Shown here piece after piece: positions 20,284-35,833 of a stretch of 64,000 nt of DNA; position 1 is the first letter of the stretch; the number at the start of each line of letters is the position of its first letter. The notes below the pieces were generated by a model, which saw only the letters and a program-made list of their open reading frames with translations, did no database searches and was not told where the DNA came from. This DNA is from an uncultured virus (IMG/VR IMGVR_UViG_3300021087_000010) (Duplodnaviria > Heunggongvirae > Uroviricota > Caudoviricetes): IMG/VR virus record IMGVR_UViG_3300021087_000010; one strand, given 5' to 3'. A program made the position numbers and the translations under genes.

Positions 20284-20384
20284 GCTCCAATTTCTCCTTT
20301 CTTTCTCGAAGGTCAATTAACTCGTCCTCGAGGCTTTGCCATATTGAAGGGCTTTTAGCGACTTTTTGTTGTCCTTCTATTGTC

Positions 20385-21270: not shown

Positions 21271-21401
21271 TTTCTTCCTGCTGTTTCAATTTTGTAAATG
21301 CTTCAGCAATATATTCTTCTAGTGTCATTCCTCTTTGTATAGCGTGTTCTCCGCATTTGACCAAAAAGTTATCTGGTACTTCTATTTCTTTTCCTTTATA
21401 T

Positions 21402-21887: not shown

Positions 21888-22192
21888 ATGGTAAAGCTTT
21901 CGCCACAACCACACCTGCTTGTTTCCATACCATTCGTAACAGATATTTCTTCATTAATACCTTTTACCTCCCAATCAACTACTGCGTTAGCTAGTATTTC
22001 ATGGCTATGTATATCAACTGCTAATATATTTTGGTATAATATATCATTGGAATTATTAGGGTTATCCTCATAATTCAAATCATACTTATATCCTCCACAT
22101 CCGCCACCTTTGACGGAAAGCCTCGCGCCCCAACTTCCTGCTGAGACGCAACGCTCTTTAAGTTTTGATAATGCTTTTTCTGTTATTATCAT
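21884..22192 (-). CDS. iscA: A-type Fe-S carrier (IscA/HesB family)
   Basis: GGGCGGY and C-terminal CGCGESF. Confidence 0.88.
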   Translation of the reverse strand: MIITEKALSKLKERCVSAGSWGARLSVKGGGCGGYKYDLNYEDNPNNSNDILYQNILAVDIHSHEILANAVVDWEVKGINEEISVTNGMETSRCGCGESFTI

Positions 22193-22203
22193 AACACTTG
22201 TCT

Positions 22204-22371
22204 TTATAACCAATTAAAGTAAGGCCACATTACTATATATGATAAACTAATCATGTATATAGTGAATGTTATTCCTATACAAGTATTCCCGTTTGGGCAA
22301 TACTTATCTTTAAAGTCTTGAACCGCTTGCAGACTAACATTGCGATTCAGGAATCGTAATGCTCTCTGCAT
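22204..22371 (-). CDS. small membrane protein
   Basis: Manual 55-aa ORF MQRALRFLNR... with AGGAG SD. Confidence 0.55.
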   Translation of the reverse strand: MQRALRFLNRNVSLQAVQDFKDKYCPNGNTCIGITFTIYMISLSYIVMWPYFNWL

Positions 22372-22384
22372 TTTGTTTCTCCTA

Positions 22385-22813
22385 TTAGCCGATACTTATT
22401 GTTCTCGGCTTTTCTGACTCAGGGGTGTTAACCTTGAGATTTATTACTAACAATCCGTTCATAAAGCCTGCTTCTGCAACCTCAACCCAATCGCCAAGAG
22501 TAAACACTCGTTTAAATGTTTTTCCGCTAAGTCCCTTGTAAATATACCTTTCTTCAGCTTTTGTCTCTTGTTTTTCCTTACCTTCTATAGTAAGTGTGTT
22601 TTTGTGTTGTTTTATGTCTATATTATCTTTCTTCCAGCCAGGAAGTGCCATTTCGATTCGGTAAGCCTCTTCGCCTACGGCAACCAAGTTGTATCTTGGA
22701 TAATTAGTCACAGGGAACTTTTCGTTCCTATTCGCTAGTTCGCTATGCAAACGGTCAAAACCGACAAATAATTTGTCGAAGTCATTAAAATTCAATGCTG
22801 CTAATCCAGTCAT
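22385..22813 (-). CDS. small heat-shock protein (Hsp20/IbpA-like)
   Basis: FVGFDRL, NYPRYNL, IEMALPG and NGLLVINL..PE. AGGAG SD before MTGLAAL. Confidence 0.93.
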   Translation of the reverse strand: MTGLAALNFNDFDKLFVGFDRLHSELANRNEKFPVTNYPRYNLVAVGEEAYRIEMALPGWKKDNIDIKQHKNTLTIEGKEKQETKAEERYIYKGLSGKTFKRVFTLGDWVEVAEAGFMNGLLVINLKVNTPESEKPRTISIG

Positions 22814-23088
22814 ATCTTTTCTCCTATTTTCGTGTCCTTTCGGCACACACTGTGCAGTCCTTTCGGTACTACGGGTTAATTTAAAGTCTGTGCAAATCCC
22901 GTCCACTGGTGGAAGTGGAACTCCTATCCTCGCCCTCGGAAAGCTTTTAATATTGTTTCCTACTCGTGCCAGACATAATGTGAGCTTTTGTTATTGCTGA
23001 CCTCACGAACAGCTAAAAATCATATAAAAATTATAATTTTCACACTATAATTATAACAAAATTACACCAACTTGTCAAGAACTATTTT

Positions 23089-23280
23089 TCAGTCCTCATC
23101 TAGCTCTAATAGGCCTTCTTTCGTTAGGTGGTCTATTGTCTTACTAATACCATGTCTTTTGGCTATTGTCCATGTCATATGGATTGCAAACCCTAGAAAT
23201 AGTAAATAATATATATCAAATTCTGTAAATAAAACCATTCCATTTTTCCTGTTTAAATTGTTTATAGATTGCCCGTCCAT
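23089..23280 (-). CDS. small membrane protein
   Basis: Shortened from the track ORF so that it lies downstream of the - strand promoter at ~23300-23328. Confidence 0.4.
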   Translation of the reverse strand: MDGQSINNLNRKNGMVLFTEFDIYYLLFLGFAIHMTWTIAKRHGISKTIDHLTKEGLLELDED

Positions 23281-23394
23281 AATTAATGTTAATATATCTA
23301 TTATAACAAAATTTTGAAGCCGAGTCAAGAATTGTTTTCTACTTATCCAAAAATAGTTCTTGACATTCGAGGTTAATTTTAGTATAATAGAGAT

Positions 23395-23574
23395 ATGGAA
23401 AAATCTCAATCAAGTAGATGGAGCGACAAAGAAATTCGCCTACTAAATCAATGGTATGGCGATATTAGTATAGAAGAAATGAGCACTATGGTGGGAAAAT
23501 CACACAGTGCCATTAGAGCTAAAGTCCACTACTTAAGGAAGCGAGGCTGGGCATTTAATACCACGCGAAGATAG
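23395..23574 (+). CDS. small Myb/GcrA-like HTH protein
   Basis: Manual 59-aa ORF MEKSQSSRWSDKEIRLL...IEEMSTMVGKSHSAIRAKVHYLR, preceded by TTGACA-17-TATAAT-6nt. Confidence 0.7.
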   Translation: MEKSQSSRWSDKEIRLLNQWYGDISIEEMSTMVGKSHSAIRAKVHYLRKRGWAFNTTRR

Positions 23575-23583
23575 GAGAACATC

Positions 23584-23847
23584 ATGAACGGAAAGGTAAT
23601 ACCATTTCCAAAAGTATTTATGACTACAAAAGATAGGTCAGATATACTTGTAAACGATATTTCTTTAGAACTACTACAGTTACTAGAGGAATACAATATT
23701 AACACTACCAGCGAAGATTTCATCTTCGACATGGCTTGGGTTGTCAAATTTATAGAGGTAATGATTGACAATTCGCTAGGGGTACACAATCCACTTAGCA
23801 AACATATACGACAATTCGTACCAAAAGAATATGAGGAACAAAAATGA
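23584..23847 (+). CDS. hypothetical protein
   Basis: AGGAG SD and N-terminal KVIPFP motif. Confidence 0.6.
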   Translation: MNGKVIPFPKVFMTTKDRSDILVNDISLELLQLLEEYNINTTSEDFIFDMAWVVKFIEVMIDNSLGVHNPLSKHIRQFVPKEYEEQK

Positions 23848-24046
23848 TAATTACAACTTTGATAGAATGTTACGCACTTTCAAGCGTAATGTACAAAAGT
23901 CTGGAAAATTAGAAGAATTCCGAAACAAACAGTATTACAAGAAGCCCTCTGAGAAACGGCAAGAAAAAATGAACGCTGCTAAACGCAGATCAGCGCAGAC
24001 CCAGAGAGCCAATTCACTTCCACCTCGACCAAAGTGGCGACTATAG
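23831..24046 (+). CDS. rpsU: ribosomal protein bS21
   Basis: FDRMLRTFKRNVQKSGKLEEFRNKQYYKKPSEKRQEKMNAAKRR matches the bS21 pattern. Confidence 0.9.
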   Translation: MRNKNDNYNFDRMLRTFKRNVQKSGKLEEFRNKQYYKKPSEKRQEKMNAAKRRSAQTQRANSLPPRPKWRL

Positions 24047-24179
24047 CCCACAACAAACCTTTTCCCTACTTAAAAATTACACTTTTTTATGTTAACTTCG
24101 AAGCCCACAGCTCGGAGAATCAATGACATGAGCAAAAATGCGATTTGCAATTTTGTTAAAAGTGTGATATAATAATAAC

Positions 24180-24380
24180 ATAAATTGGCAATAACAAAGA
24201 TAGCTACTGTTTATAAAACTCAACAAAACCTAGACAAAGAGTTCCACTCGAGAGACAGCTCTCCCTCAGGAGAGATGGCTCGATGACTGGAATCTCTCTT
24301 TAATTGTTGTGGTTTTTATACTATTAAATCAATCTATTGTACTATTTGAATCAAACAATGGTATAAACTAACGCCAATTT
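24180..24380 (+). ncRNA. putative ~200-nt structured ncRNA
   Basis: Promoter TTGCAA-17-TATAAT at 24145-24173, terminal stem AAATTGGC/GCCAATTT, long irregular internal hairpin, no ORF. Confidence 0.5.
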
Positions 24381-24516
24381 TAAGATAAAAGAGAATTGCT
24401 ACACCTGCGTCAACTTTTTGAACCAACTTTGTTGCATAACTTCTGCCAACCGAAAATATATTTTAACAAGTTAATGCACTATGTACTAAACTTTACCTAA
24501 TTTCCCCCTAGACTAC

Positions 24517-24565
24517 TATACACCCGTTGCGGTTTGGTGTAAACGATATACACCCGTTGCGGTTT
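24517..24565. repeat. 19-bp direct repeat x2 (TATACACCCGTTGCGGTTT)
   Basis: Copies at 24517-24535 and 24547-24565, 30-bp period. Confidence 0.9.
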
Positions 24566-24576
24566 CGTTTAAGAAA

Positions 24577-24652
24577 TGGCTCCCCGAGCTGGGCTCGAAC
24601 CAGCGACCCATTGATTAACAGTCAATTGCTCTGCCAACTGAGCTATCGGGGA
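24577..24652 (-). tRNA. tRNA-Asn(GTT)
   Basis: Acceptor TCCCCGA/TCGGGGA, anticodon arm ATTGA-CTGTTAA-TCAAT, GTTCGAGCC, encoded CCA. Confidence 0.95.
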
Positions 24653-24688
24653 ATAATTTTGATATAATACTAGAATTAGTATTACTTT

Positions 24689-25196
24689 TTAGAATTTCTC
24701 TTTAAATGTCCTTAGCCCCATATATTTTCCATCTTTCCAGATGTATATAGGTTTTGCTACATTATATGGGTTTACACCATTGCCCACATATTTAAATTTA
24801 CTAGAAACGCAACTAGGATTTATGTGGACTAAGTATCTATCTACACAAGTTACTTGTTCTTCTGCATATTTCTCTATCTCCTCATAAGTTCCTAGCACGA
24901 ATTCTCCATTATCTAGTTTTGCTTTTTCAGTCCCTGTAAGCACTCTGACCTCCATCAATTTCCATAAATTCATCTACGCTTAGCGCCTCTGATTCTTCTA
25001 TCCATTGCCCCGATATTTCTTCTTCCTGTATTTCGGTTTCAGTAACCTTTACAGTATCGTCCATTTCTCCAGCACAATAATCATCTAACATATCCTCAGC
25101 TTCTTTTTCTGTTTCAGCTATGAATTCTAGCGTTTCTATTGTATAAAGTGTTTTCTCCACTTTAGCGATATATTTTTTGTGCATGTGTTCAGCCAT
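24689..25196 (-). CDS. two small hypothetical proteins
   Basis: ORF track 24689-24973 and 24927-25196. Confidence 0.5.
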
Positions 25197-25512
25197 TTGT
25201 TTCTCCTACATTATCAAATAAATATTTGATTGCTTGTTTCGGAGCTTTTTCTAGCCCCATAAGTTTACTACTATCCAAATTTAATCTAAGTGCTAGATTC
25301 ATTATTAATTCTGCTTTTGTAATTGGCATTTCTCCAGTTTTTGTAGTATATACTGCTTTTTGGTACACGCCTTCGCGTGATAACTTACCAATTATAGATT
25401 TTACACTCTTATTAAGTTCTTCCGCTAGTATATTTACTGTGTCTCTGTTGGGGCTACCTTTATATGTTTTTACCATATAGCCCACTTGTTTATCCGTATA
25501 ATTTGCTGTCAT
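25189..25512 (-). CDS. T5 A2-like DNA-binding protein, paralogue 2
   Basis: Clearly homologous to 28834-29151 (NYT..V.....P.RDTV..LA.E..KSV.SII.KLSREGVY). Confidence 0.65.
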   Translation of the reverse strand: MTANYTDKQVGYMVKTYKGSPNRDTVNILAEELNKSVKSIIGKLSREGVYQKAVYTTKTGEMPITKAELIMNLALRLNLDSSKLMGLEKAPKQAIKYLFDNVGETNG

Positions 25513-25586
25513 TTAAGTTACTCCTATAACTATTAAAACAAAAACCACCCATAAAAGTATTATTATTCTAGGGTCTTCGTTCCACA

Positions 25587-27595
25587 TTACTTGTAATAAA
25601 GGTTTAAGCCTAAGAAAGCTTCTCTTACGCCACTATCTTCTGAACCAATGTCAATCTTAGCATTGCCTGCACTGCTTGCTATCAACTGAGTTTTACCACT
25701 AGCTGAGGGCCCAAGCTCTTTATTCGTATCTATTTTGATGGTTAAAATGCCATCATTCATTTCGTAGCTTAAACTACCGTTTTTTCCTATTTGTTCCATT
25801 AATCCTCCTCTGGATTGTCGTCTATGTTAAAATCTGGGGTAAATTCAAAATCATCTCCCCATTCGTTTGTGAACTCTATATCTGGCCCTTCCAGCTTATA
25901 AAGTATTGCTAATTCTTTGAGAACTACCCCAATTTCCTCAGCATTTGCACTTATCACTTTTTGCAAATGTTCTATGTCTGCGTGTATAAAAGAAGTTTCA
26001 GTTTCCAACTCTTGTAATTTAGCCTCTAGAATCTTTATTTTGGACTCATTCTGTGGCTGATTAGGGAATTTTATTACATTGCTTACCATAACTTCCACTT
26101 TGTATCCTTAGCGTTTTCTAGGTCAGCTACTTCATTCTTTAATCTAGCTATTTCTCTTTTCCTAAAAGCTATTTCTTTATCTGCTTCAGCATGTTTCCCA
26201 GCTTTTAGCCACCACTTTCGTACTAAGTCCCATGCGTCCTCGGGGTCTAAGACTTTGTAGCCTTTAACTATATATTCCATTAAGTCAGTAATTACAATTT
26301 TTCCGTTTTCTACTTCAATACTTAATGAAAAATCTTCTGCGATATCTAAAAGATTGCCTCTTTCGAGGATTTTACATATATCAGCAGGTACTACTAATAT
26401 TTGGTCTGTATAATTATCATTTGTTGCCATTAGCAAACTCCTCCGCTGTCATAGCGAAATCTATATGAACCGAACTATCTTTACAGTCGTGGGCCTTTGC
26501 CCATTTTTCTGCTCTTTCATAAACTTTATCTCTGAATTCTTCTTCGTCAATACAATTTAAAATAATATCTTCTTGCTTATCAAAAGACATAGTTATTTGC
26601 CCAATCCATTTCTGTCTACCTATTACTTTGTCATGACCATCTCTAACGACTCCGTCTCGTTGGCTAACTTTTAGTTGTTGCATCTGCCATATAGCTCTTG
26701 CAGCTTTACTTGTTTCATTTACTTCCATACTAGTTTCACTCCTCTTCTTTGCAGTTCGTTTGTGCACTTTTGTCTTACTTTTGGTTTAGTTCTATCACTA
26801 TTAATGGCTTCTAGTAAAGTTGCTTTACTTTGGCACTTAATGTAAAAGTGATTCCATTTCGTAGTTTTAACAGCCGTATTCATTCTCCCAAAGGAGTTTT
26901 TACTGTAAGCTCTTTCGCTTTGTTTAAATTTAGTTGGCATTTCTTGTTTTCTCCTGTAATTCTACACCGATTAAAAATTCTATTGTTTCTGCTACTTTTG
27001 GTTCTGTTTTAACCAATAGGTGAGCAACCCCTGTTATTTGTTTTACACTCATAGAGGCTAAGTACTCCACTATATGTTTTGTACTGTCATCTATAAGTTT
27101 ACTACTATTCGGCATTTTGTGCCTCCTGTAGCTTTCTGATTGGCTTCATATGTCGTTCATATCTAGCGTCTTCATCTACTTTTGTAAATAAAGGGCATAC
27201 AGCTTCTGCATCTTCTTTAGCCATAATAGGGTCTAACCCTACAAGCTGAATAGGTACATCATACTGGTCAATCGTTAATTCTTCTTCTGGCTCTGCGAAT
27301 TTTCTTTTTATCAAATTCCATAGCCTTCTACTCCTAGTTCCATGAGAGTGGTTATTAAATTTTCTTCTGTTTACCACTATATTCTCCTTACGCCTTCTGC
27401 GTATTCTCTTTCTTCTGGGTTTATCTTTGGCTCTTCTATTTCCGCTTTAGGGTCTACTACTATTCTAGCTGTCCCATCACTATAGCCTACCATCTTTCTG
27501 CGCTTGATTTCTTTTCTAGCGTCTTTTCCAAATTTATCTTGCCTGTCTCTAAGCATTTGTAAATCTTTGTCTGTTGTACTTAATAATAAAGTCAT
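25587..27595 (-). CDS. operon of eight small early hypothetical proteins (25587-25799, 25799-26098, 26083-26436, 26417-26767, 26719-26940, 26930-27115, 27105-27377, 27377-27595)
   Basis: Tightly overlapping co-oriented ORFs, several with GGAG SD motifs. Confidence 0.6.
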
Positions 27596-27599
27596 TTTG

Positions 27600-27743
27600 C
27601 TACTCCTGTTCTTCTGTGTTATTTTGTTGTTTACGAGAATATTTAGTCCTATCGCGCATTCTACAGGCACGATTAAATCTCCGAGCAAATTTTGCTACGG
27701 GGTTACGATTTTTTCTCTTAGGATTTTTAGTTCTCTTTTTCAT
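27600..27743 (-). CDS. small highly basic protein (NPVAK motif, possibly ArfA-like)
   Basis: Manual 47-aa ORF MKKRTKNPKRKNRNPVAKFARRFNRACRMRDRTKYSRKQQ..., with leaderless promoter geometry. Confidence 0.6.
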   Translation of the reverse strand: MKKRTKNPKRKNRNPVAKFARRFNRACRMRDRTKYSRKQQNNTEEQE

Positions 27744-27799
27744 ATATCTATTATACTACGCTTTCAGTGAATTGTCAAGAACTATTTTTTACTAGGCAT

Positions 27800-27826
27800 A
27801 AAAAAACCCCGCACTCTGGCGGGGTT
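27800..27826 (-). terminator. intrinsic terminator
   Basis: AACCCCGC-cagagt-GCGGGGTTTTTTT on the - strand. Confidence 0.85.
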
Positions 27827-27848
27827 CAAAAATGTTGATTATTTAGAT

Positions 27849-28715
27849 TGGCGGGTGAGTAAATCCTTCAGCCGTCTGTAGGGGATTAGGCTACTTACTA
27901 CTTGAGTTCTCGTTAGGGCTCAGCGTCATGAATTCGCATTTTCGTCCATTTATTACTGCTCTCGTAGATTTGTTATGTTGCACTATTAATGCTTGCATTG
28001 TATGTTTAAGTAGTTCGTATGCTCTTCCACTTGTCAATTTATTACTCGGCTTATACACTCCGATGTTTAGTACTGCCCCCTTCATTTGCAATCACGCAGG
28101 TACTAGATGAACTCTCGCCGTTCTCGGATTCTCACTCGAGAGTGCTCCTTCCGAAGAGTTGGCTATCCTCTATGCTCTTAGAGTTCTTACCACAGGGTTG
28201 GTTTGATAGCTTAATTAATTTTACTACTTGGTGTCCTTCTCACCCATGCATTATTTAACGACCTGTTCTTTCGGGTCGGAACCAGGCTCATATTTTTCCT
28301 GCCTTCCTAGTCACAGACAGCTGTCTCATACAGCCTGCCGAGACGACAGACTGTATCAAGGTATGATGTAGTGTACCACCCTGCATAGTGATGCTTTGTT
28401 TTACATGAGGCTCAATCACTGCGCGCTCTGACTCATGGTTTGTTATTTGAAGGATTTATCACTAGTGCGTGCTAGATTTACTACCCCTTTTCCGAGCATT
28501 CCGCTCCCGAGATGTTATCGTGGCATCTACGGCTCAATCACGACCCAATTTCTAGGCGGGACACCTACTTACCAATGGTAATGCTGGTAAGCGCAATAAT
28601 CGGGAAGAAGAAGCGTATTTAAAGGCTAGGATTCCGCGTCTACACGCGACACCATTATTGCTCTTTCATAAAGCCCGAAGGCTATTTTTTACTTTTGGTC
28701 TTTTTCTCAATTTCT
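27849..28715 (-). ncRNA. putative large structured ncRNA (GOLLD/ROOL size class)
   Basis: Bounded by TTGACA-17-TATAAT (28722-28750) and a terminator (27800-27826). No credible ORF, raised GC, many hairpins and a long-range 11-bp helix 28448-28458/27860-27870. Confidence 0.7.
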
Positions 28716-28833
28716 GTATATATTATACTAAATTTTTGAAGCTGTGTCAAGAAGTTTCTTAAGATTTGCTTAAAATACTTTTTGGGAATCTGCTAGGGAA
28801 TCTCACGATTAACCCTAGCATATCCTTTGGGAC

Positions 28834-29151
28834 TTAGCTTAATATGTCAACTAATTTTTGTAAATCAGCTTTACTAGCTTTTACTAAAGTCGGTAATTCG
28901 ATGCCGAAGTGTACATTAATCTGAGCAACAAGTTCAGCTTTGCGAACAACTGGCTCACCTGATTTGGTAACCTTTGGTTGTGCGATGTATACGCCTTCTC
29001 TTGATAACTTAGCTATTATGCTTCTTACGGATTTTCCGAACTCAGCGGCTAGTGCTTCAACAGTATCTCTGGTAGGGTTAGCTTCGTACATTGCTGTCAT
29101 TTGCTCTACCATTGCGTCTGTATAATTTTTTGCTCTTGCTACTTCTGTCAT
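28834..29151 (-). CDS. T5 A2-like DNA-binding protein
   Basis: Architecture like T5 A2 (N-terminal HTH with SV.S.KL...Y, C-terminal RKA.LV...L.KA...L). Own promoter and CAGGAG SD. Confidence 0.65.
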   Translation of the reverse strand: MTEVARAKNYTDAMVEQMTAMYEANPTRDTVEALAAEFGKSVRSIIAKLSREGVYIAQPKVTKSGEPVVRKAELVAQINVHFGIELPTLVKASKADLQKLVDILS

Positions 29152-29240
29152 TGTTTTCTCCTGCGAAAATTGTGTTATTAAATTTTGTTTATGGTATTAT
29201 TATATCACGCTACCAGTTGCGTGTCAAGGGTTAGCTTATG

Positions 29241-29366
29241 CTAGAGTAAACCCTTTGCCTCTAGAGCGATTGCGAAAATCGCTAATGTTAGAAAAATTAC
29301 TAGCGAGTAAAGTATGGAATACTTATTCCAATGTTTCGCTATTTTGTATTTCTCGTAATTTGTCAT
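29241..29366 (-). CDS. 41-aa single-TM protein
   Basis: Manual ORF MTNYEKYKIAKHWNKYSILYSLVIFLTLAIFAIALEAKGLL, downstream of a consensus promoter at 29378-29406. Confidence 0.5.
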   Translation of the reverse strand: MTNYEKYKIAKHWNKYSILYSLVIFLTLAIFAIALEAKGLL

Positions 29367-29568
29367 TTATAGTATCTATTATATAGAGCGTAATCAGTGT
29401 TGTCAAGAATTATTTTAAGATAGCACTCATTATTTAACGCCAGCGAACTCTCGGGGGCCGAACGCGAAATCTCGAAACTTCGTTTCAAATATCGCAAAAA
29501 ACGAAAATTCCTCGGCGGGTGTGCGTAAATCTTCCCGAAACTTCGCATAACCCCGCATAAGCTATTTC

Positions 29569-29597
29569 TTGACATTCTGTCCCCGCTATGGTATAAT
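29569..29597 (+). promoter_or_regulatory. consensus sigma70 promoter with no downstream ORF
   Basis: TTGACA-17-TATAAT. Confidence 0.75.
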
Positions 29598-29886
29598 ATC
29601 CAGGGTGGGAAGGGGGATATCCTAGATTTAGTACTCGCTCGCACGCTCGCGCGTAATTTCATGTGTTTACTACTATGCGACGCTACGGCGCAGCCGGCAT
29701 TAATTTCATTTGTTTACTACTGTGTGTTCGGCGCGCTCGCTGTGAAAAGTGAAACAGTCGCTATAGGGAGGCGTCCCAAAGTGAAATATATTTAGCCCTC
29801 TGAGAGGTTAATTTAGGAAAAGTGAGATAGTTAGCGTCTCATTTTAGACTGTTTTAAATTATTTCACTATTCGCGTAAGAAAAGAC

Positions 29887-29922
29887 TTGACAAATCGTAA
29901 AAAGCGTGGTATAATGGGCGCC
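29887..29922 (+). promoter_or_regulatory. consensus sigma70 promoter with GC-rich discriminator, no ORF
   Basis: TTGACA-17-TATAAT-GGGCGCC, followed ~25 nt later by the hairpin AACCCCGA...TCGGGGTT. Confidence 0.75.
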
Positions 29923-29988
29923 GCCCAAGCCTAAACGCAAAAAACCCCGACACGGCTTGGCTCGTTCGGGGTTGTTTCGGTACTCGTT

Positions 29989-30138
29989 TTAGGAGAGTAA
30001 GCCTTTGACCATTTCTAGTGCTTCAATGTTAGCTCTGCTAAGGGATTGTGCTATTTTAGGGTCTACGCCTTTGGCGATTATCTCATTGATGAGGGCTTTT
30101 TTAGTTGGTCTCGCAACTTTTGCTTTTTCTTGTTTCAT
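29989..30138 (-). CDS. small protein resembling the A2 C-terminal domain
   Basis: MKQEKAKVARPTKKALINEII...SLSRANIEAL. CAGGAG SD and own promoter. Confidence 0.6.
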   Translation of the reverse strand: MKQEKAKVARPTKKALINEIIAKGVDPKIAQSLSRANIEALEMVKGLLS

Positions 30139-30243
30139 GTCTTTCTCCTGATTAACTACTATTATATAGAGCCAACAGGGAATTGTCAATAAGAATTATA
30201 GACTTGGCTTAAGATATATTTGATGCCACGCGCAAGAAAGTAC

Positions 30244-30277
30244 TTGACTTTCCCTCCCCGCTGTGGTATAATGGCGC
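30244..30277 (+). promoter_or_regulatory. consensus sigma70 promoter with GC-rich discriminator, no ORF
   Basis: TTGACT-17-TATAAT-GGCGC. Confidence 0.75.
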
Positions 30278-30424
30278 TGCCGCGCGTAGACTTTAAACTT
30301 CACATTTGCACTTTGTTTGGCGCGCACGCCACTTTTAAACTTCATATTTGCACTTCCTCTCTGGCGCAGGCGGCACGCGTAATTTCATATCACCACTACT
30401 TCGGCGCGCTTTGGCGCAGCGCGG

Positions 30425-30447
30425 ATGAGAATGATTATCATTCTCAT
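30425..30447. promoter_or_regulatory. Fur-box-like palindrome 1 (extended)
   Basis: ATGAGAATGAT-T-ATCATTCTCAT. Confidence 0.7.
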
Positions 30448-30519
30448 TTGGCTTTTTTCAGGCAAAAGAGAATCCCCTGAGGCTATTAGGGGCATTACCA
30501 TTACGAAAGCTAAGTCAGT

Positions 30520-30705
30520 TTAGCTTGCGTTGAGCATACGAAGAATCAATTCCAAATTTTGGATATTGGTTCTTTCAAGAGATACCATGTTAAACTCACC
30601 GCCACCTAAAAGTGGAGAATCAGTTTCCATGATATTTCTTATAAGCTCTTTTTTGGATTTTGCTTTCGCTTTTTCCATTTCAGGCTCCGAAGAATTGTTA
30701 AACAT
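30520..30705 (-). CDS. small protein resembling the A2 C-terminal domain
   Basis: SKKELIRNIMET...GGEF..VSLERTNIQNL. Leaderless promoter geometry. Confidence 0.65.
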   Translation of the reverse strand: MFNNSSEPEMEKAKAKSKKELIRNIMETDSPLLGGGEFNMVSLERTNIQNLELILRMLNAS

Positions 30706-30750
30706 AAGGGTATTATAGCAAAAAAACGCAGACCTGTCAAGCGAAAAAGC

Positions 30751-30967
30751 GAAAATAAATAAATTATTTTCCTTGACATTTCCGAGCGGCTGTGTTATAA
30801 TCGGCGCTCCAAATGAGAATCATTCTCATTTGGCTTTCTTGTTTTTTTGGGCTTTTTTTGGTGGCTTATCTCGTCGTGCTTTATAATTTGGTATAACCAA
30901 ATTATAAAGCGTGTCGGCGTATTTGTCAAGCATTTTTCGGAAAATAAATAAATTATTTTCCTTGACA
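30751..30967. repeat. convergent-promoter cassette, copy 1
   Basis: + promoter 30773-30801, Fur-like box 30811-30831, 33-bp palindrome 30878-30910, - promoter to ~30930. Repeated at 32344-32549. Confidence 0.85.
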
Positions 30968-30993
30968 TTTGGCAAAATTCGTGCTAGGAATTT

Positions 30994-31593
30994 TTAACCT
31001 GTGGCTCGAATTAATGCGTCTAAAAGTTCAATTTTTCCTGTGTCTTTTTGAACCACATTCCAAGAAGGGCAAGTTGAAAACATAATTTCTTTTGCGTTCG
31101 TAATTGCTTCAAAATAATCAATCGCTAGAGCGTCAGAGGGAGAATATTTATAAGGCTTATTTATTTTTCTGTTTTCTAAAACGATAGCTTGTCTTTCTTT
31201 AGAAATTGAAATCCAATTTTTGTATATCTCAACATTTTTTTCTGTAAGCATTTTATTTTCCCATTTGGCAACCTTTCGCATATGATTAATATATTGTCTT
31301 TTTGTGCAATAATTAAAAACAGGGTGAACCCATGAGCGTGTGTGCCACGACCTATCATAAATAACAACCTCTGATTTTTTCGGCATGATTTTTTCATAAT
31401 CAGAAAGCCATTTTTTCATGCGTGTTTTTGTCGGCATACCTTGATGACGATAAACAAAGTTAATATCATTTTTAATTAGTAGCTTGACAAAGCCACCTTT
31501 TCCAGAAGCGTCTCGACCTTCCAAAACAAAAGCGATTTTTCTATCGCCTAAGTTTTGGATATTTTCTTTTAGCATTTCGATTGAATTTTTCAT
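30994..31593 (-). CDS. ppk2: polyphosphate kinase 2 family protein
   Basis: Walker A VLEGRDASGKGG, DRSW, K.WISIS..RQ and YKYSPSD. The start overlaps the upstream stop (ATGA). Confidence 0.82.
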   Translation of the reverse strand: MKNSIEMLKENIQNLGDRKIAFVLEGRDASGKGGFVKLLIKNDINFVYRHQGMPTKTRMKKWLSDYEKIMPKKSEVVIYDRSWHTRSWVHPVFNYCTKRQYINHMRKVAKWENKMLTEKNVEIYKNWISISKERQAIVLENRKINKPYKYSPSDALAIDYFEAITNAKEIMFSTCPSWNVVQKDTGKIELLDALIRATG

Positions 31594-31832
31594 AGTACCC
31601 AGATTAAAGTTAGTAAAGGAATAACAACCCAAATTATAAAATCGGTTGTTAGTGAATATCTGAAATATAGTTTTTTCAGAAAATTAGTTGCGACAGTTTC
31701 AGTTCCAATTTGAAAATCGAAATTTTCTTTTTCTAGGATTTTACAAGCTGTTTCAAATTTTTTGACATCTTCGGAATTGTCAATTTCAAAGTTGGTTTTT
31801 ATTGTTAGTCTTTTTGTTATTAATTTTTTCAT
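31590..31832 (-). CDS. small C-terminally anchored membrane protein
   Basis: 80 aa with a hydrophobic C-terminus. Confidence 0.55.
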   Translation of the reverse strand: MKKLITKRLTIKTNFEIDNSEDVKKFETACKILEKENFDFQIGTETVATNFLKKLYFRYSLTTDFIIWVVIPLLTLIWVL

Positions 31833-31836
31833 TGTT

Positions 31837-32298
31837 TTATTTTAGCATTAAATGGTCTTGATGTAAACAGTTAATTCCAATTTTTTGCATTTCTTTTTGA
31901 ATTATTTTGTTATCATCAAACATGATTTTTTCCATGTTTTTAAATTGTTTTAGATTGAAAAGTCTTTTCAGTTTTGCTGTTTTCATTTCAGCGTCGGCTC
32001 TGTGGTCGCCATTTTTTCTGCAAAGAATAGTTTTTGCTTTGATTCCATGATGAGCCAAAAAGTCAAAATCTGCTTTGCTCATATTTCTAGCTGTGCAAAT
32101 CCAAACATTTTTATTTGCTTTTATTAATGCTTTCATAAAATCGGCAAGTGGCAAAAGTGAATCTTTGAAAATGTTTTTTCTTGTGGAATCTGAAATCCAT
32201 TTTTCAAGGTCTAATTTTCCTTCGGCAGTTCCTGTGAATCTGTGCGAAGAATCAATGACAGTTCCGTCAAGGTCAAATATGTATAATTTATTTTTCAT
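31837..32298 (-). CDS. HAD-superfamily phosphatase (PNKP-phosphatase-like)
   Basis: FDLDGT, ICTAR, D..MK and MFDD. Confidence 0.85.
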   Translation of the reverse strand: MKNKLYIFDLDGTVIDSSHRFTGTAEGKLDLEKWISDSTRKNIFKDSLLPLADFMKALIKANKNVWICTARNMSKADFDFLAHHGIKAKTILCRKNGDHRADAEMKTAKLKRLFNLKQFKNMEKIMFDDNKIIQKEMQKIGINCLHQDHLMLK

Positions 32299-32343
32299 AA
32301 TGTAATTATATCAAAAAAAGCAAGACCTGTCAATAAAAAAGAT

Positions 32344-32549
32344 GAAAATAAAAAAAATAAATCGCTTGACATTGGGCGGCTTTTGTGGTATAATCGGCGC
32401 CTCCAAATGAGAATCATTCTCATTTGGGGTTTTTATTTTTTGGGGTCTTTTCGAGGCGTGCTTTATAATTTGGTATAACCAAATTATAAAGCGTGTCGGT
32501 CCAAATGTCAAGGGTCTCAAGGAAAATAAATAAATTATTTTCCTTGACA
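32344..32549. repeat. convergent-promoter cassette, copy 2
   Basis: + promoter 32366-32394, Fur-like box 32405-32425, 33-bp palindrome 32460-32492, - promoter to ~32511. Confidence 0.85.
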
Positions 32550-32608
32550 ATCTCCTCTATTTATGCTTGCGGCTCATTCATGAAATCTATAGCTTCCTAT
32601 AGATTCCA

Positions 32609-33034
32609 TTAATAAGGCTTTTTGTATATAGAGCCATCTCGTTTTCTCTCCCACGCCATAGGCATAGGCGCAGGTGATTTTTTAAAGTGTCTAAAACCTA
32701 ACGCTAGATATTTCTTTATCTTAGGCATTCCACCCTTGACATAGAACCATTCAGAACCACCATTAGATTTAACGCCAGTAGTCCTAGAGTTCTGACCTTG
32801 CCATTTCTTTTGATAGCCTAGCTTAGCGAGATAGTATTGTATTTGCCATTCGATAGAGTAAGCGTCATGTTTAGAAGCTATCTCTATAGTGTGTAATACC
32901 TTGAGCCTATGGTCTAAGCCATATTCCTTTTGTATAGATGTCTCTATATCATAACGCCTATGGTGTATGTCATTGGCTACACCTATCTTATGATAGGGTT
33001 TCTTATTACATTTCATTATGTATAGTGTAGTCAT
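32609..33034 (-). CDS. GIY-YIG/T5orf172-like nuclease
   Basis: LYIM...HKIGVA...R...IE..I...GGSEWF. Confidence 0.7.
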   Translation of the reverse strand: MTTLYIMKCNKKPYHKIGVANDIHHRRYDIETSIQKEYGLDHRLKVLHTIEIASKHDAYSIEWQIQYYLAKLGYQKKWQGQNSRTTGVKSNGGSEWFYVKGGMPKIKKYLALGFRHFKKSPAPMPMAWERKRDGSIYKKPY

Positions 33035-33572
33035 TAGTCTCTTGCTCCTGTCATTATAACCAGTGATAAGCAAAGGCTAGAAGCAACCGAAGTCAATACC
33101 AATAGGGCAATTTCAATAACCCATATATCAGTATATCCGACATCTTCAAAGCATAGCACATTATTCTGTGCAGTTAATATTACCATAGCTTGCATATAAG
33201 CTATGAACCCAAATGCCACCATTCCCATTGATGACGCAATCAATATAGTTTTATTTAACATTATATTATTATCCTTATTAACATAGAACCATTAAGAGCC
33301 AAGCCAATTAAATTACCTATGGTATAAACCATATCGCCCTGTTTCCACGCTCTGTATTGGTAGCATAGCAACCCAAGACATATACCTGTGGGCAATGTCC
33401 AGTGTGGCATGATACCATTATAATGCGAGGGTAACAAAGAAACCTGTACCAAAAACATACCAAGATAAGCGACCTTATCTTCAAAAGATATTTTTGTTTT
33501 AATCTCAATATCGTTAATGAGATTGGCTCTGTGAGAAGCCAAGATTTTTTGTTGTCTAATTGTTTGATTCAT
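33034..33572 (-). CDS. two small membrane proteins (33034-33261; 33261-33572, three TM, PQ-loop/SemiSWEET-like pattern)
   Basis: Hydrophobic segments and a C-terminal GDMVYTIGNLIG. Confidence 0.5.
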
Positions 33573-33622
33573 AATAATTCCAGTAAAAATGGGGGCTGAG
33601 TAATGGCAACCCCCGAACCATT

Positions 33623-33802
33623 TTATTTTGCGTCTTTCAGCAAAATGTCTCTAAGAAGAATAAGATTAAAAATATTCATTCTTTCCAAAGATACATGGTC
33701 GAATTCTCCACCAGTATTTGTTGGGGTTTCAATGATTTCTCTAATCAAGATTTTTTTAGAGGGTCTTTTTGGAAGTGAGTTTCCAGCTTTTTTATTTAAC
33801 AT
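33623..33802 (-). CDS. small protein resembling the A2 C-terminal domain (paralogue of 30520-30705)
   Basis: Manual 59-aa ORF ...PSKKILIREIIETPTNTGGEFDHVSLERMNIFNL, preceded by TTGCTA-17-TATAAT-6nt. Confidence 0.7.
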   Translation of the reverse strand: MLNKKAGNSLPKRPSKKILIREIIETPTNTGGEFDHVSLERMNIFNLILLRDILLKDAK

Positions 33803-33888
33803 ACCTGTATTATACAGGAAGATTAACCCAATAGCAATAGCAAAACCGAAAATAAATGAATTAATGCGACACCATATGACGCAGGGTT

Positions 33889-33907
33889 AATGATAATCAT
33901 TCTCATT
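33889..33907. promoter_or_regulatory. Fur-box-like palindrome 4
   Basis: AATGATAATCATTCTCATT. Confidence 0.7.
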
Positions 33908-33921
33908 TGGGGCCCCCGTCA

Positions 33922-33977
33922 TAGTGTAGTAGTAGAGTAACACACCCCGCCTTAGTGTATTAGTATAGTAACACACC
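33922..33977. repeat. 25-bp imperfect direct repeat x2 (TAGTGTA.TAGTA.AGTAACACACC)
   Basis: Copies at 33922-33946 and 33953-33977, flanked by G/C runs. Confidence 0.85.
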
Positions 33978-34143
33978 GAGGGGGCGGTTCATTGACCTTG
34001 ACACGCTCTCTCTCTGTGGGCCCCCCTTTACGTACTACTTGGGATTTTTCAAAAAAGCAAAAAAGACGCTATCGTCAGTATCATAATGATACATCTAGAA
34101 AATATTTCTTGACAATACTGCTAAATTTTGATATAATACTAGC

Positions 34144-34605
34144 ATGAGTACAAATTTAGTAACCAAAATGAGTCCTGAAGGACTGGAGATCGCAAACGCT
34201 TATCTGGAGAAGGGAACTATCCCGGCCGTTTGCACTAAATTAGGCATAACCGAAAATGAGGTTAGTGAAGTCCTAAATAAAAGAGAAATCAAACAATATA
34301 TAGATACTGTTTTTCTAGACACAGGTTATAGAAACCGATTTAAAATATCGGAAACTTTAGATATGCTTATTGAAAAAAAGCTAGAAGAAGCAGATGAAAC
34401 TGAAATATATACTACTAAGGATATGGCAGATCTATTACAGATGGCACATAAAATGAGAATTGAGGAATTGAAAGCTCAGACAGAAATGGAAAAAGCAAAA
34501 GCGCAAACCATTAAAACTCAAGTTAATATTCAAGACAATTCTGGAACCCCTTTTGGGCAAGGAAACTATGGACTACTCATAAAAAAATTGATGAAAGATC
34601 AATAG
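34144..34605 (+). CDS. terminase small subunit (T5-like)
   Basis: MSPEG.EI..AYL, GYRNR, KKLEE and AHKMR match my recollection of T5 TerS. Leaderless promoter at 34109-34137. Confidence 0.8.
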   Translation: MSTNLVTKMSPEGLEIANAYLEKGTIPAVCTKLGITENEVSEVLNKREIKQYIDTVFLDTGYRNRFKISETLDMLIEKKLEEADETEIYTTKDMADLLQMAHKMRIEELKAQTEMEKAKAQTIKTQVNIQDNSGTPFGQGNYGLLIKKLMKDQ

Positions 34606-34666
34606 ACACATTCCGTGTCAAGAATGGTTTATCGGGGGAGAGTCCGAAACCTAAAGGGAGAAAAAA

Positions 34667-35833
34667 ATGAAAAGACTAGCCTTACTAGCTGGCCTACTAG
34701 TGTTCACACCACTACAAGTGTTTGCTGATGGACCAGATCAGACTGGAACAGGTTGTGCTAATGGTACTGAATTTTGCGAAAACAATACTTTAGATACTAC
34801 TAATACTACTACTACTACTAATACAAACACGAATACCAATACAAATGCTAATACCAATACTAACACTAATACAAACACAAATACTAATACAAATACCAAC
34901 ACCAATACTAACGCTAATACAAATACCAACACGAATACTAATACAAATGCTAATACCAATACTAATACAAATGCGAATACTAATGTAAATACCAGTACTA
35001 ATACTAATGCTAATACAAATGTAAATACTAATACTAGTACTAACAACAATACTAATACTAACAACAATACAAACAATAATACCAATACTAATACTAACAA
35101 TAATACCAATACTAATACTAACAATAATACCTCAACCTCAACTAGTAATAATACTAATACGAATAATAACACAAACACAAATGTGAATACTTCTACTGTT
35201 GACAGTACTTCGAACTCTACTAGTAATAATACAAATAATAATAATAACACTAATACTAACAATAGTACTAGTAATAACACTAGTAATAATACTAATACAA
35301 ATAACAACACCTCAACTTCTGACAGTAATGTAACTACTGATAATACTAATAACAATAACAACAATACTAAGTCAGATAATAGAAACGAAAATTATAACAA
35401 ATCTGAGTCAGTTCAAACAATTAATCAGAATGTTAAATCTCCTCCCCCAAGTGCAATCGCACCTTCAATTATGTCCTATTCGCAAGATTTATGTACAAGT
35501 GGAGTATCAGGAGCAGTACAAACACAAGTTTTCGGATTTTCTGGTGGTAAAGCGATAGTTGACAAAAATTGTGAAAGATTAAAACTCTCTAAATACTTAT
35601 ACGACATGGGCATGAAGGTAGCTTCTGTTGCTTTACTTTGTCAAGATAAAAGAGTATTTGCAGCTATGGAAATGGCGGGAACTCCTTGTCCTTACATGGG
35701 TGAAATAGGAAAGAAAGCCACTATAGCATGGGCAGAAAATGAAGAAGACAAACCAACTTACGAGAAAGTAGTAGAAAAAGGAAAATCTTGTAAACGAAAA
35801 GGAAAACGTAAGCCGGGCGCAATCTGTAAATAG
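34667..35833 (+). CDS. secreted protein with long Asn/Thr repeat and Cys-rich C-terminal domain
   Basis: Signal peptide, ~190 aa of NT repeats, then PPPSAIAP...C..GVSG...NCERLKL...C.D.RV...GTPCP. Confidence 0.85.
   Translation: MKRLALLAGLLVFTPLQVFADGPDQTGTGCANGTEFCENNTLDTTNTTTTTNTNTNTNTNANTNTNTNTNTNTNTNTNTNTNANTNTNTNTNTNANTNTNTNANTNVNTSTNTNANTNVNTNTSTNNNTNTNNNTNNNTNTNTNNNTNTNTNNNTSTSTSNNTNTNNNTNTNVNTSTVDSTSNSTSNNTNNNNNTNTNNSTSNNTSNNTNTNNNTSTSDSNVTTDNTNNNNNNTKSDNRNENYNKSESVQTINQNVKSPPPSAIAPSIMSYSQDLCTSGVSGAVQTQVFGFSGGKAIVDKNCERLKLSKYLYDMGMKVASVALLCQDKRVFAAMEMAGTPCPYMGEIGKKATIAWAENEEDKPTYEKVVEKGKSCKRKGKRKPGAICK

Follow-up and report, generated by a model that had tools for sequence, protein, structure and literature searches.

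Phages and prophages encode the large, ornate RNAs GOLLD and ROOL, said to have been described by Weinberg and colleagues in 2009 and 2017. RNA-only, homo-oligomeric cages are characteristic of their kind, and in phages or prophages GOLLD often adjoins tRNA genes. From marine metatranscriptomes, the groups of Weinberg and Shi are likewise said to have reported abundant orphan RNAs in 2009, the IMES RNAs among them. ColE1 RNA II and phage origin transcripts are structured, ORF-less and several hundred nt long and start from a strong sigma-70 promoter, and RNA II together with the promoter-driven origins of T7 and T4 provides the models for an origin transcript.

Cryo-EM of GOLLD and ROOL is the subject of a preprint (10.1101/2024.12.08.627333). 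Structured RNA candidates have also been derived from IMG/VR on the basis of covariation, 8,495 of them unnamed (Fremin et al., 2023; PMC10690425), and these may include the RNA considered here, in whole or in part. Its core motif and two contig numbers were absent from six searched supplementary files of that paper, the available passages of the article describe no RNA of such kind, and a full-text search of the literature returned no such RNA for T5-like or marine phages.

The window, that is the whole 64-kb stretch of DNA that was analysed, is DNA of an uncultured marine T5-like siphophage; among cultured phages the closest to it are T5-like ones of Proteus and Vibrio, with 44% identity in the DNA polymerase. 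An ORF-less unit on its minus strand had been taken in an earlier note, made from the letters alone, for a giant structured noncoding RNA that was either GOLLD-like or new. We contend that the unit is very probably a gene standing on its own, whose product belongs to a new family of stable, highly structured ncRNAs of uncultured marine T5-like phages, large in size (0.69-1.48 kb, here about 0.9 kb). The central claim of the note is supported by synteny, three covarying domains, the absence of a conserved frame and abundant RNA contigs.

The search against Rfam, which had been proposed together with that claim, was run both at gathering scores and permissively and matched no family. At gathering score, Rfam 15 returned only three tRNAs in the 64-kb window and one tRNA, with no other family, in 20 related loci. 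In the permissive scan of 27500-29000 no family reached E < 0.09, the best row being an unrelated lncRNA model over the terminator region (E = 0.098); GOLLD gave no row at E <= 10 in this interval, and ROOL had no Rfam match in the window, in the 27500-29000 scan or in the 20 related loci. Group I/II introns, RNase P RNA, tmRNA, 6S RNA, riboswitches and small ribozymes were without a match to their Rfam models, and ARAGORN detected no tmRNA in 23000-33500 or in 51 related loci. Given that no Rfam 15 family matched, the RNA is not GOLLD or ROOL, so that of the two options in the note the new family is supported and the GOLLD branch is not. The 3' segment CAAGUGGAAGA, which the note had likened to GOLLD, does lie within a truly conserved block, but this is not evidence of GOLLD.

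Boundaries and architecture of the unit

The features are listed in the 5' to 3' order of the RNA, preceded by the upstream gene and the promoter; all are on the minus strand.

28837..29151, minus strand: gene for a 105-aa helical protein, upstream neighbour of the RNA gene
28722..28750, minus strand: sigma-70 consensus promoter TTGACA-17-TATAAT, 12/12 hexamer matches
27798..28715, minus strand: body of the large noncoding RNA (about 918 nt; predicted start through terminator T run)
28672..28683, minus strand: 5' hairpin AGCC-UUCG-GGCU, pairs checked in the window sequence
28621..28666, minus strand: conserved 5' helix AAAG[A]GC / GCCUUU with bulged A, pairs checked in the window
28648-28635, minus strand: hairpin CGCGU-GUAG-ACGCG in the variable insert of the 5' helix
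28494..28542, minus strand: conserved core with H-type pseudoknot, from covariation in alignment A1
28542-28539 with 28522-19, minus strand: stem 1 of the core pseudoknot
28532-31, 28530 and 28528-24 with 28514-07, minus strand: stem 2 of the core, U28529 bulged
28506-28494, minus strand: core hairpin GAGC-GGAAU-GCUC
28404..28437, minus strand: helix CAUGAG/CUCAUG around the second copy of GUGAUUGAGCC (28419-28409), in free and constrained folds
28245..28403, minus strand: variable region, largely gapped or poorly aligned in the nearest relatives L226, L217 and L260
28355-28329, minus strand: 12-bp hairpin UACAGUCUGUCG...CGGCAGGCUGUA in the variable region, predicted in both folds
27995..28244, minus strand: conserved 3' multi-helix domain (block 3), alignment A2, window pairs checked
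28237-35/28196-94, minus strand: block 3 helix
28186-81/28114-09, minus strand: block 3 helix
28171-68/28158-55, minus strand: block 3 hairpin with loop GAUAGCCAA
28105-01/28072-68 on 28099-96/28076-73, minus strand: stacked helices of block 3
27835..27994, minus strand: variable 3' region, no conserved counterpart in the nearest relatives by eye
27870-27853, minus strand: tail UGAAGGAUUUACUCACCC, complementary to two alternative upstream segments
27804..27827, minus strand: intrinsic terminator hairpin, 9 pairs (6 G-C), followed by a T run
27778-27750, minus strand: next promoter after the terminator T run, 12/12, for the downstream genes

From the promoter spacing, the RNA start is predicted near 28715. 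The promoter and the terminator, which the note had called perfect and strong, are both confirmed, the former as one of the host sigma-70 type, the latter as a 9-pair stem at 27827-27804 with the T run behind it. The same applies to GC enrichment without a credible CDS: GC is 0.42-0.47 across 27850-28750 versus 0.33-0.38 in the flanks, and it exceeds that of the flank in 37/37 units. In alignments read by eye, relatives keep the terminator stem although both of its strands have changed (CCCCGCC../..GGCGGGG versus CCCAGCC../..GCUGGG). The unit lies in a promoter-dense region of small genes between the replication and structural modules.

As read from the alignments and folds, the RNA is of modular build, with three conserved parts and variable hairpin inserts in between. 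By eye, the 5' hairpin appears in relatives as AGCU-UUCG-GGCU, with one G-U pair, and as AGCU-UUCG-AGCU, with both sides changed, and in L226 the same AGC/GCU closes a longer insert. Within the core, the GAUUGA loop is near-invariant. GUGAUUGAGCC is present twice, at 28541-28531 and 28419-28409, exactly where it had been placed before (28531 and 28409), and the helix around its second copy is aligned, again by eye, with CAUAAG/CUUAUG in L226, L217 and L260; the second copy was rejected as a second core, as the core model R1 makes no core call there. In block 3, GUGGAAGAGCAUACGAACUACUU forms a conserved single-stranded run, and the 28105-01/28072-68 helix spans a 90-nt insert in relatives. Two inverted repeats, I1 (13 nt, 85%) and I2 (11 nt, 100%), overlap in the tail UGAAGGAUUUACUCACCC, I1 being the tail pairing used by both the free and the constrained fold.

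The fold energy of the single sequence is unexceptional (z = -1.11; 3/20 shuffles fold as well), and it is the comparative and expression evidence, not fold energy, that places the observation above chance. All five hairpins named earlier are present, four of them in the unconstrained MFE fold. The pairing of GCAAUAAU with AUUAUUGC, an interrupted 8-pair helix in that fold, was however given up: it competes with the conserved 5' helix, to which it gives way in the constrained fold, and it has no counterpart by eye in L217 despite the same insert. Similarly, the 11-bp complement of 27860-27870 with 28448-28458, supposed to close a domain of about 600 nt, is exact, but it is equalled or exceeded in 16/200 dinucleotide shuffles (8%), occurs in neither fold and has no conserved counterpart by eye in L217 and L260. 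A kissing interaction of the UUG[A]GC motif with the block 3 loop GCCAA was also rejected, as the loop reads GCCUU in the L184 group, whose core keeps GAUUGA.

Compensatory changes and conserved genomic position

In the alignments, the three conserved parts hold their base pairs through compensatory changes, so that the covariation among homologues that had been called for is now documented in three domains, with shuffled and slid controls for two of them. For the core (alignment A1, 23 sequences), 86.0% of cells are paired versus 69.8% in shuffled alignments (0/500 as high) and covariation is 0.395 versus 0.119 (0/500; slid controls <= 0.081), but such shuffle controls, here and below, overstate significance, since the helices were derived or extended on the same sequences that were used for counting and the sequences are related by descent. 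Individual pairs illustrate the changes: pair 13-40 of A1 is CG in 9, AU in 7, GC in 5, GU in 1 and UG in 1, and pair 33-45 is UA in 9, AU in 8 and GC in 5. For block 3 (alignment A2, 14 sequences of which 13 are distinct, 29 pairs scored), 96.8% of cells are paired versus 86.2% shuffled (0/500), both sides are changed in 11/29 pairs versus 6.7 (0/500), and covariation is 0.319 versus 0.134, with slid controls <= 0.084. The motif of the 5' helix occurs in 39/61 non-redundant 5' ends, where 155/156 cells are paired and seven paired haplotypes are seen (AUUG/CAAU 20, AUUU/GAAU 8, AAAG/CUUU 5, UUUC/GAAA 3 and three singletons).

Two further observations bear on the strand. G-U pairs are frequent, such as UG in 13/13 sequences at A2 pair 3-55 and GU in 6 at A1 pair 23-54, and since these would be C-A mismatches on the opposite strand, the minus strand is the folded one. 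Stable tetraloops also favour the sense strand, where they outnumber their reverse complements about 10 to 1: in 37 units (38,034 nt) CUUCGG was counted 40 times in sense versus 4 in reverse complement, C-GNRA-G 112 versus 31 and CGAAAG 27 versus 2.

The position of the unit is conserved as well. A promoter-to-promoter unit of 0.69-1.48 kb lies right after the 105-aa gene in 49/59 related viral contigs, with the same kind of promoter at its head in 49/59 related loci, and in some relatives a further promoter-bounded unit, only 110-300 nt long, immediately precedes it. The core pattern matches 86 metagenome stretches and one contig of the genome collection, and model R1 found the core in 29/50 sources and once in the window. 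R1 is without a match in the L037-L050 subgroup and in L051-L059, the former having only the 5' helix element in common, in 6/8 of its units. An exact 14-mer scan of viral contigs returned 117 stretches, nearly all by chance; of the new loci only 6 had E < 1e-17 against the core profile, all on contigs already in the set of relatives. The DNA of the unit has no match in the phage collection (cultured phages), and the nearest genome record, G001, lacks the window stretch 20000-36000.

The 105-aa gene itself has 59 relatives in viral contigs and lies on the same strand in 59/61 of the loci fetched with the core that have at least 900 nt upstream. Its product belongs to no Pfam or PHROG family and has no match among the proteins of the phage collection (cultured phages). 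The predicted model (pLDDT 87) has five helices; Foldseek against the PDB gave no hit at E <= 0.001, and the weak rows (E >= 0.12) are three-helix DNA-binding domains.

RNA libraries, coding potential and rival readings

Expression was read from assembled contigs of sea-water RNA libraries and their k-mer depth rather than from raw reads. Contigs in four RNA libraries of four studies cover the unit, and in three of these they are far deeper than the flanks: near-identical contigs of up to 851 nt reach depths of about 150-646, versus 0-15 over the flanking phage genes, although contig depth is a rough level, a poor measure by the tool's own warning, and gives neither strand nor ends. In X15, a 796-nt piece has depth 646 versus 11-14.5 over the upstream gene and 2 downstream; in X16, an 851-nt piece has 274 versus 3.9-4.4 and 2.5; in X20, the high-depth contigs are pieces of 103-270 nt with depths of 149-396 versus 8.5. 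The oligo-dT library, X19, contains the unit without enrichment (4-5 versus 2-5). Contigs cover 27833-28685 and 27890-28685 with one differing letter each, and at 27833/27835, immediately before the terminator stem, those of two studies pass into adapter-like letters, a weak hint of the RNA 3' end. The flanks are nearly empty in these libraries, which speaks against carry-over of DNA. The metatranscriptome check suggested earlier was positive, and contig depth puts the RNA among the phage's most abundant transcripts in natural sea water. No RNA covers the stretches 25500-27700 and 29550-31000, which is a sign of libraries free of DNA and not proof of silent genes.

That the region instead codes for small proteins, one or several and on whichever strand, its conservation being that of coding sequence, is extremely improbable. 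A 66-aa sense ORF with a TTG start, the longest on that strand, and antisense ORFs of 79 and 60 aa with ATG starts are present, and over 71 units the antisense ORFs are longer than in shuffled sequence (mean 83.6 versus 67.6 aa), but this excess fits an A-rich sense strand (A 0.33) and the longest sense ORFs are no longer than shuffled ones (mean 52 versus 56.5 aa). The antisense pieces STAPFIC and LPQGG belong to two different ORFs and frames in the window and to one ORF in L226, antisense ORF starts and lengths vary among the eight nearest relatives, and the indels that separate relatives do not come in multiples of three. The antisense ORFs were rejected as genes because their frames are not conserved; as judged from ORF lengths and peptide comparison among relatives, neither strand has a conserved reading frame, and it is base pairs rather than codons that track conservation.

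Two other readings accept an RNA but assign it a different nature. A long precursor that is cut into small RNAs, or a leader acting in cis on its neighbours, would be in line with the mosaic of three conserved blocks among variable stretches, with the short pieces in X20 and with the additional upstream unit of some relatives. Two studies nevertheless have single contigs that take in 796 and 851 nt of the unit, and covarying long-range helices (28186-81/28114-09 and 28105-01/28072-68) join distant segments. A leader role is unlikely given the unit's own terminator and the separate 12/12 promoter of the downstream genes, and we regard this reading as a whole as improbable. Still less probable is a replication-origin transcript, i.e., a structured primer or R-loop RNA that starts phage DNA synthesis at the locus. 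A strong promoter, an ORF-less, GC-richer and purine-rich sequence of a size similar to RNA II and a nearby replication module would suit it, as would the many related contigs that break 100-1300 nt upstream of the neighbouring gene, which points to a region that is unusual for assemblers. A conserved intrinsic terminator, however, ends the RNA, with the next promoter following at once, the very high contig depth in RNA libraries is unlike that of a transient primer, and UUCG and GNRA loops with covarying helices over the whole length indicate a stably folded RNA; the cumulative GC skew makes no turn at the locus, and no iteron-like direct repeats were found beyond pairs of 9-14 nt. A promoter and terminator of its own, compensatory pairs, no conserved frame and the presence of RNA all mark the unit as a stand-alone structured ncRNA gene.

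Proposed role and comparison with known RNAs

The unit would be transcribed by the host RNA polymerase early in infection, its folding would let the RNA accumulate, and the RNA would work in trans. A possible, though doubtful, role is that of a scaffold or decoy, in which the folded frame would show several unpaired copies of AGUAGUA(A/G) and so bind some factor of the host or the phage, or titrate it, in the course of takeover. This idea comes from motif counts: AGUAGU occurs 157 times in 61/71 units versus 16 for its complement ACUACU, and AGUAGUA was seen 61 times versus 4.2 expected in the 37-unit set. Pairing in cis between AGUAGU and ACUACU was rejected as a general rule on these numbers (157 versus 16), both being present in only 11 units. 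By analogy with GOLLD or ROOL, an RNA-only assembly would be the next guess, an unlikely one.

In its widest form, the proposal may be put tentatively as follows. The RNA would represent an undescribed ornate class, the main early product of a whole ocean clade of T5-like phages and one of the phage transcripts that abound most in sea water, and would act as an RNA machine of host takeover, either as a self-assembling RNA-only particle or as a multivalent decoy for a host RNA-binding protein or defence sensor, with the strictly linked 105-aa helix-turn-helix-like protein as its partner. Large, intricately folded RNAs without a known job are rare, and new classes (GOLLD, ROOL, OLE, raiA) have opened structural biology. 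T5-like phages, the classic model of stepwise host takeover, would gain a candidate RNA player, and the RNA, clearly delimited at 0.8-0.9 kb, lends itself to chemical probing and cryo-EM. Support in silico is unusually complete, comprising a defined gene, dozens of diverged homologues, three covarying domains, a modular build and RNA presence.

The comparison with described systems can be drawn at several levels. With ColE1 RNA II the unit shares a structured ORF-less transcript from a strong sigma-70 promoter, but it ends at a terminator, shows high contig depth in RNA libraries and has no origin features that could be found. The candidates of Fremin et al. (2023; PMC10690425) come from the same source, IMG/VR viral contigs, with the same kind of evidence, covariation. 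Like GOLLD and ROOL, the RNA is a stand-alone phage gene in the size class of 0.6-0.9 kb or more, with many helices, pseudoknots and stable tetraloops, conserved parts ringed by variable peripheral hairpins, a high RNA level and no assigned function. Unlike them, it is carried by marine T5-like siphophages. It differs from GOLLD also in that a tRNA gene is found in only 3/51 related loci, all of one sub-lineage, the nearest tRNA in the window being 3.2 kb off (24577-24652). With the IMES RNAs it has in common an origin in ocean metagenomes, great abundance in ocean RNA and no assigned function; those RNAs are much smaller and their Rfam members are without a match here, whereas this RNA has a fixed place in the genomes of a defined group of phages.

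A probable early gene of a T5-like phage and its neighbourhood

Judged by its gene content, the window is a T5-like siphophage. PHROG matches include a split NAD-dependent ligase, a D5-like regulator and SbcD, a DnaB-like helicase, primase and family A polymerase, and the structural set of terminase, portal, protease/capsid, major tail protein, tape measure, distal tail protein and central fibre. Among cultured phages, the closest are T5-like phages of Proteus and Vibrio (polymerase identity 44%), and none gave a match to the candidate RNA gene, hereafter the unit, or to the 105-aa gene upstream of it. The unit lies in a small-gene region (about 23-33.5 kb) that holds 13 promoters with 12/12 matches and is flanked by minus-strand replication genes and plus-strand structural genes.

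Signals of the unit and genes of the early region
28750-28722, minus strand: sigma-70 promoter TTGACA-17-TATAAT, perfect consensus
28837-29151, minus strand: 105-aa gene, just upstream of the unit
27827-27804, minus strand: terminator hairpin and T run, nine pairs, six of them G-C, about 920 nt past the promoter
27778-27750, minus strand: next perfect promoter, immediately behind the unit's terminator
27600-27743, minus strand: DUF7230 peptide, 47 aa, very basic (Pfam E = 4.3e-10; PHROG 6310)
22385-22906, minus strand: Hsp20, auxiliary
30994-31632, minus strand: polyphosphate kinase 2 (PPK2; Pfam E = 1.3e-28), auxiliary
31837-32298, minus strand: polynucleotide-kinase-like protein, auxiliary
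32609-33073, minus strand: T5orf172-domain protein, auxiliary

The unit is a discrete gene with host-type signals, and its fold is conserved and modular. An earlier note, made from the sequence alone, had described a promoter and a terminator enclosing GC-enriched sequence with no credible coding sequence; both signals are present, and GC rises to 0.42-0.47 between them against 0.33-0.38 in both flanks. The five hairpins that it named are also there, as are two copies of its repeat GUGAUUGAGCC (28541-28531 and 28419-28409). The longest sense ORF has 66 aa (TTG start), and ORFs on the plus strand reach 79 and 60 aa. Across 71 units, the mean length of the longest sense ORF is 52 aa, no longer than the 56.5 aa of shuffles, while antisense ORFs are somewhat longer (83.6 against 67.6 aa), an excess that fits the A-rich sense strand. 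Relatives share the antisense pieces STAPFIC and LPQGG, which fall in two separate ORFs in the window and in a single one in the related unit L226; antisense starts and lengths vary across the eight nearest relatives, and indels among relatives do not come in threes. On these sequence grounds the unit is not coding.

Of 61 loci retrieved through the RNA core by itself, 59 also carry the linked 105-aa gene. Its product is predicted to be helical with an HTH-like stretch, and no significant structural match was obtained for it; it may be a partner of the RNA, or the linkage may be mere synteny. The DUF7230 ORF is the first past the RNA gene and is served by a separate 12/12 promoter.

A near-perfect 11-13-bp palindrome of the CCAAATGAGAATCATTCTCATTTGG type occurs three times on the plus strand (30422-30450, 30809-30833 and 32401-32429). 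Two begin at most 10 nt downstream of 12/12 plus promoters (30773-30801 and 32366-94) and the third about 150 nt past an 11/12 promoter (30244-72); they resemble operators or transcription units of very short length, not ordinary terminators. A second GC-richer (0.40-0.48), ORF-poor stretch at 29400-30550 has perfect promoters on the minus (30189, 29406) and plus strands (29569, 29887), with low cover by RNA-library contigs (depth about 2 in run X19, none in X15 and X16), and could hold another noncoding element. Many related contigs break off 100-1300 nt upstream of the 105-aa gene (L001-L004, L007, L010, L011, L014, L024, L032, L034, L036, L040, L041, L044, L047, L048 and others), which points to a repeat, a hypervariable region or a genome end, such as a T5-like terminal repeat, near 29.3-30.5 kb. 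If the contig ends are so explained, the DNA injected first would include or adjoin the RNA gene.

Relatives and conserved parts of the RNA

The 105-aa gene has 59 relatives in IMG/VR contigs, and in 49 of these loci it is followed by a unit of 0.69-1.48 kb, measured from consensus promoter to consensus promoter, in which a simple scan often detects a terminator before the second promoter. We kept 36 non-redundant related units; 13 were dropped because their promoter spacing equalled, exactly or nearly, that of a listed neighbour (L009, L012, L015, L016, L018, L019, L021, L023, L024, L030, L032, L035 and L042), and L017, being truncated, was also excluded. GC exceeds the flanks in 37 of 37 units, window included. 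A degenerate core pattern matched 86 stretches in metagenome contigs and yielded 34 further complete units. The nearest full-length relatives are L226, L217 and L260 (810-821 nt); L060 is 99% identical to the window RNA, but partial. The only match in a prokaryote genome collection, L270, is a 4.4-kb contig binned in a Flavobacteriaceae MAG; it looks like a phage contig because both the 105-aa gene and the RNA core are on it. Consensus TTGACA/TATAAT promoters speak against a Bacteroidota host, and the bin is therefore a weak host clue.

Similarity of relatives to the window is a mosaic of promoter and 5' end, core (unit positions 204-330), a block at about 640-780, and terminator. Three parts of the predicted RNA are conserved with their pairs kept, namely a 5' helix and two further parts:
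28542-28494, minus strand: core, stem 2 from RNAalifold on a plain MAFFT alignment of 23 sequences
28244-27995, minus strand: block 3, 25 pairs by RNAalifold on a MAFFT alignment of 14 sequences

The covariation that the earlier note had proposed to seek among homologues is found as compensatory changes in all three. The 5' helix has the form NNNN[A]GC ... GCN'N'N'N' with the A bulged and a cap that may be as small as a tetraloop or as large as a 35-nt insert; the helix occurs in 39 of 61 non-redundant 5' ends, with 155 of 156 cells paired over seven paired haplotypes (AAAG/CUUU in the window, AUUG/CAAU in most relatives). In the core, both sides changed in four of the seven pairs of stem 2, and a crossing stem 1 added by hand gives an H-type pseudoknot of 12 pairs, whose pair 13-40 is CG 9, AU 7, GC 5, GU 1 and UG 1 times and in no case unpaired. 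One helix added by hand brings block 3 to 29 pairs in eight helices, two of which remain paired across a 90-nt insert present in some relatives only. Since some helices were chosen or extended on the same sequences, which also share ancestry, the shuffle figures are not probabilities: the core has 86.0% of cells paired against 69.8% in shuffles and a covariation of 0.395 against 0.119 (0/500 shuffles as high; at most 0.081 when partners were slid by 1-3 columns), and block 3 has 96.8% against 86.2%, 11 pairs changed on both sides against 6.7 (0/500), and 0.319 against 0.134 (slid controls at most 0.084).

A covariance model of the core gave 29 matches in 50 sources, six of them in loci outside the model-building set, and a single match within the window. 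It recognised no core in the L037-L050 subgroup, in which six of eight units have the 5' helix element displaced inwards by about 400 nt, following an extra 5' domain. The conserved helices often contain G-U pairs, which fits a minus-strand RNA and not the opposite strand. Over the units (38,034 nt), the counts for the motif and for its reverse complement are 40 and 4 for CUUCGG, 112 and 31 for C-GNRA-G, and 27 and 2 for CGAAAG.

An insert of about 33 nt (AUGGUGUCGCG..CGCGGAAUCCUA) inside the 5' helix was seen by eye in the window (28659-28627), in L217 and in the distant L043 (2883-2935). It is absent from closer relatives, and hairpin modules thus seem to have been repeatedly exchanged or lost. 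Many relatives (L008, L013-L033, L036, L041, L046-L049) have an extra short unit of 110-300 nt, delimited by two consensus promoters, that separates the large RNA gene from the 105-aa gene; the L020/L021/L023 lineage has a tRNA-Glu just upstream.

The single-sequence fold alone is unexceptional (-239.8 kcal/mol against -231.7 +/- 7.3 in shuffles; z = -1.11). An 11-bp long-range helix (27860-27870 with 28448-28458), put forward earlier as closing a large domain, exists as an exact complement, but such a match arose in 16 of 200 shuffles, the helix is absent from both the free and the constrained fold, and the alignment, read by eye, showed no conserved counterpart in the nearest relatives. Both folds instead pair the 3' tail with the post-core GGGGUAGUAAAUC, a pairing for which relatives show no evident counterpart.

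High depth in RNA libraries

A 2.5-kb stretch was found in 20 public runs, six of which are RNA libraries from six studies containing 37-55% of its sampled words. For four RNA libraries, one per study, contigs were mapped on 25500-31000.

K-mer depth of RNA-library contigs (a rough figure; contigs carry no strand or end information)
X15: 796-nt piece, 27890-28685, one differing letter; depth 646; upstream gene 11-14.5; downstream 2
X16: 851 nt of an 872-nt contig, 27833-28685; depth 274; upstream gene 3.9-4.4; downstream 2.5
X20 (rRNA-depleted): four pieces over 27994-28611; depth 149-396; upstream gene 8.5; downstream not covered
X19 (oligo-dT): low cover throughout; depth 4-5; upstream gene 2-5

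The unit's contigs have high depth, far above the flanks in X15, X16 and X20 and not in X19, and the metatranscriptome cover suggested as a check in the earlier note is there. That the same libraries contain long near-identical pieces beside near-empty flanks speaks against carried-over DNA and in favour of a very abundant RNA. Immediately upstream of the stem of the terminator, the X15 and X16 contigs pass into adapter-like letters (at 27835 and 27833), a weak hint that a 3' end lies here. Contigs of lower depth match the conserved blocks only and then diverge from the window (loose ends at 28542, 28507 and 28021), which fits transcripts of related RNAs.

Possible function and comparison with known large RNAs

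AGUAGU is present in 61 of 71 units, 157 times in all and at varied positions, against 16 times for its complement; AGUAGUA occurs 61 times against 4.2 expected, and the motif is usually followed by R-R-N-C-U-A. Having no partners in cis, the sites are probably exposed, either unpaired or folded non-canonically. We infer that host RNA polymerase would transcribe the gene early and that the RNA would act in trans. Our best guess, and a tentative one, is that a folded scaffold would display several AGUAGU(A) sites, which would bind or titrate a host or phage factor. The distal face of Hfq follows an A-R-N repeat rule, which AGUAGU(A) fits; this is only a lead.

The earlier note had wavered between a GOLLD-like and a new large RNA. 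Rfam 15 gave no family at gathering score for the unit or across 20 related loci, and a permissive scan of 27500-29000 gave nothing at E < 0.09. Among the families so scanned without a match are GOLLD, ROOL, introns, RNase P, tmRNA, 6S, riboswitches and small ribozymes; the GOLLD-like alternative is not supported, and the new one is. ARAGORN found no tmRNA in the window region or the related loci, and tRNA genes occur in just 3 of 51 related loci. Full-text literature searches returned no description of the RNA. The core motif was absent from the searched passages and six supplementary files of Fremin et al. 2023 (PMC10690425), where the RNA may be listed without a name. After the displaying scaffold, our next guess is an RNA-only assembly of the GOLLD/ROOL kind, and we rate the unit's RNA as a new family within a known kind, the large ornate phage RNAs.
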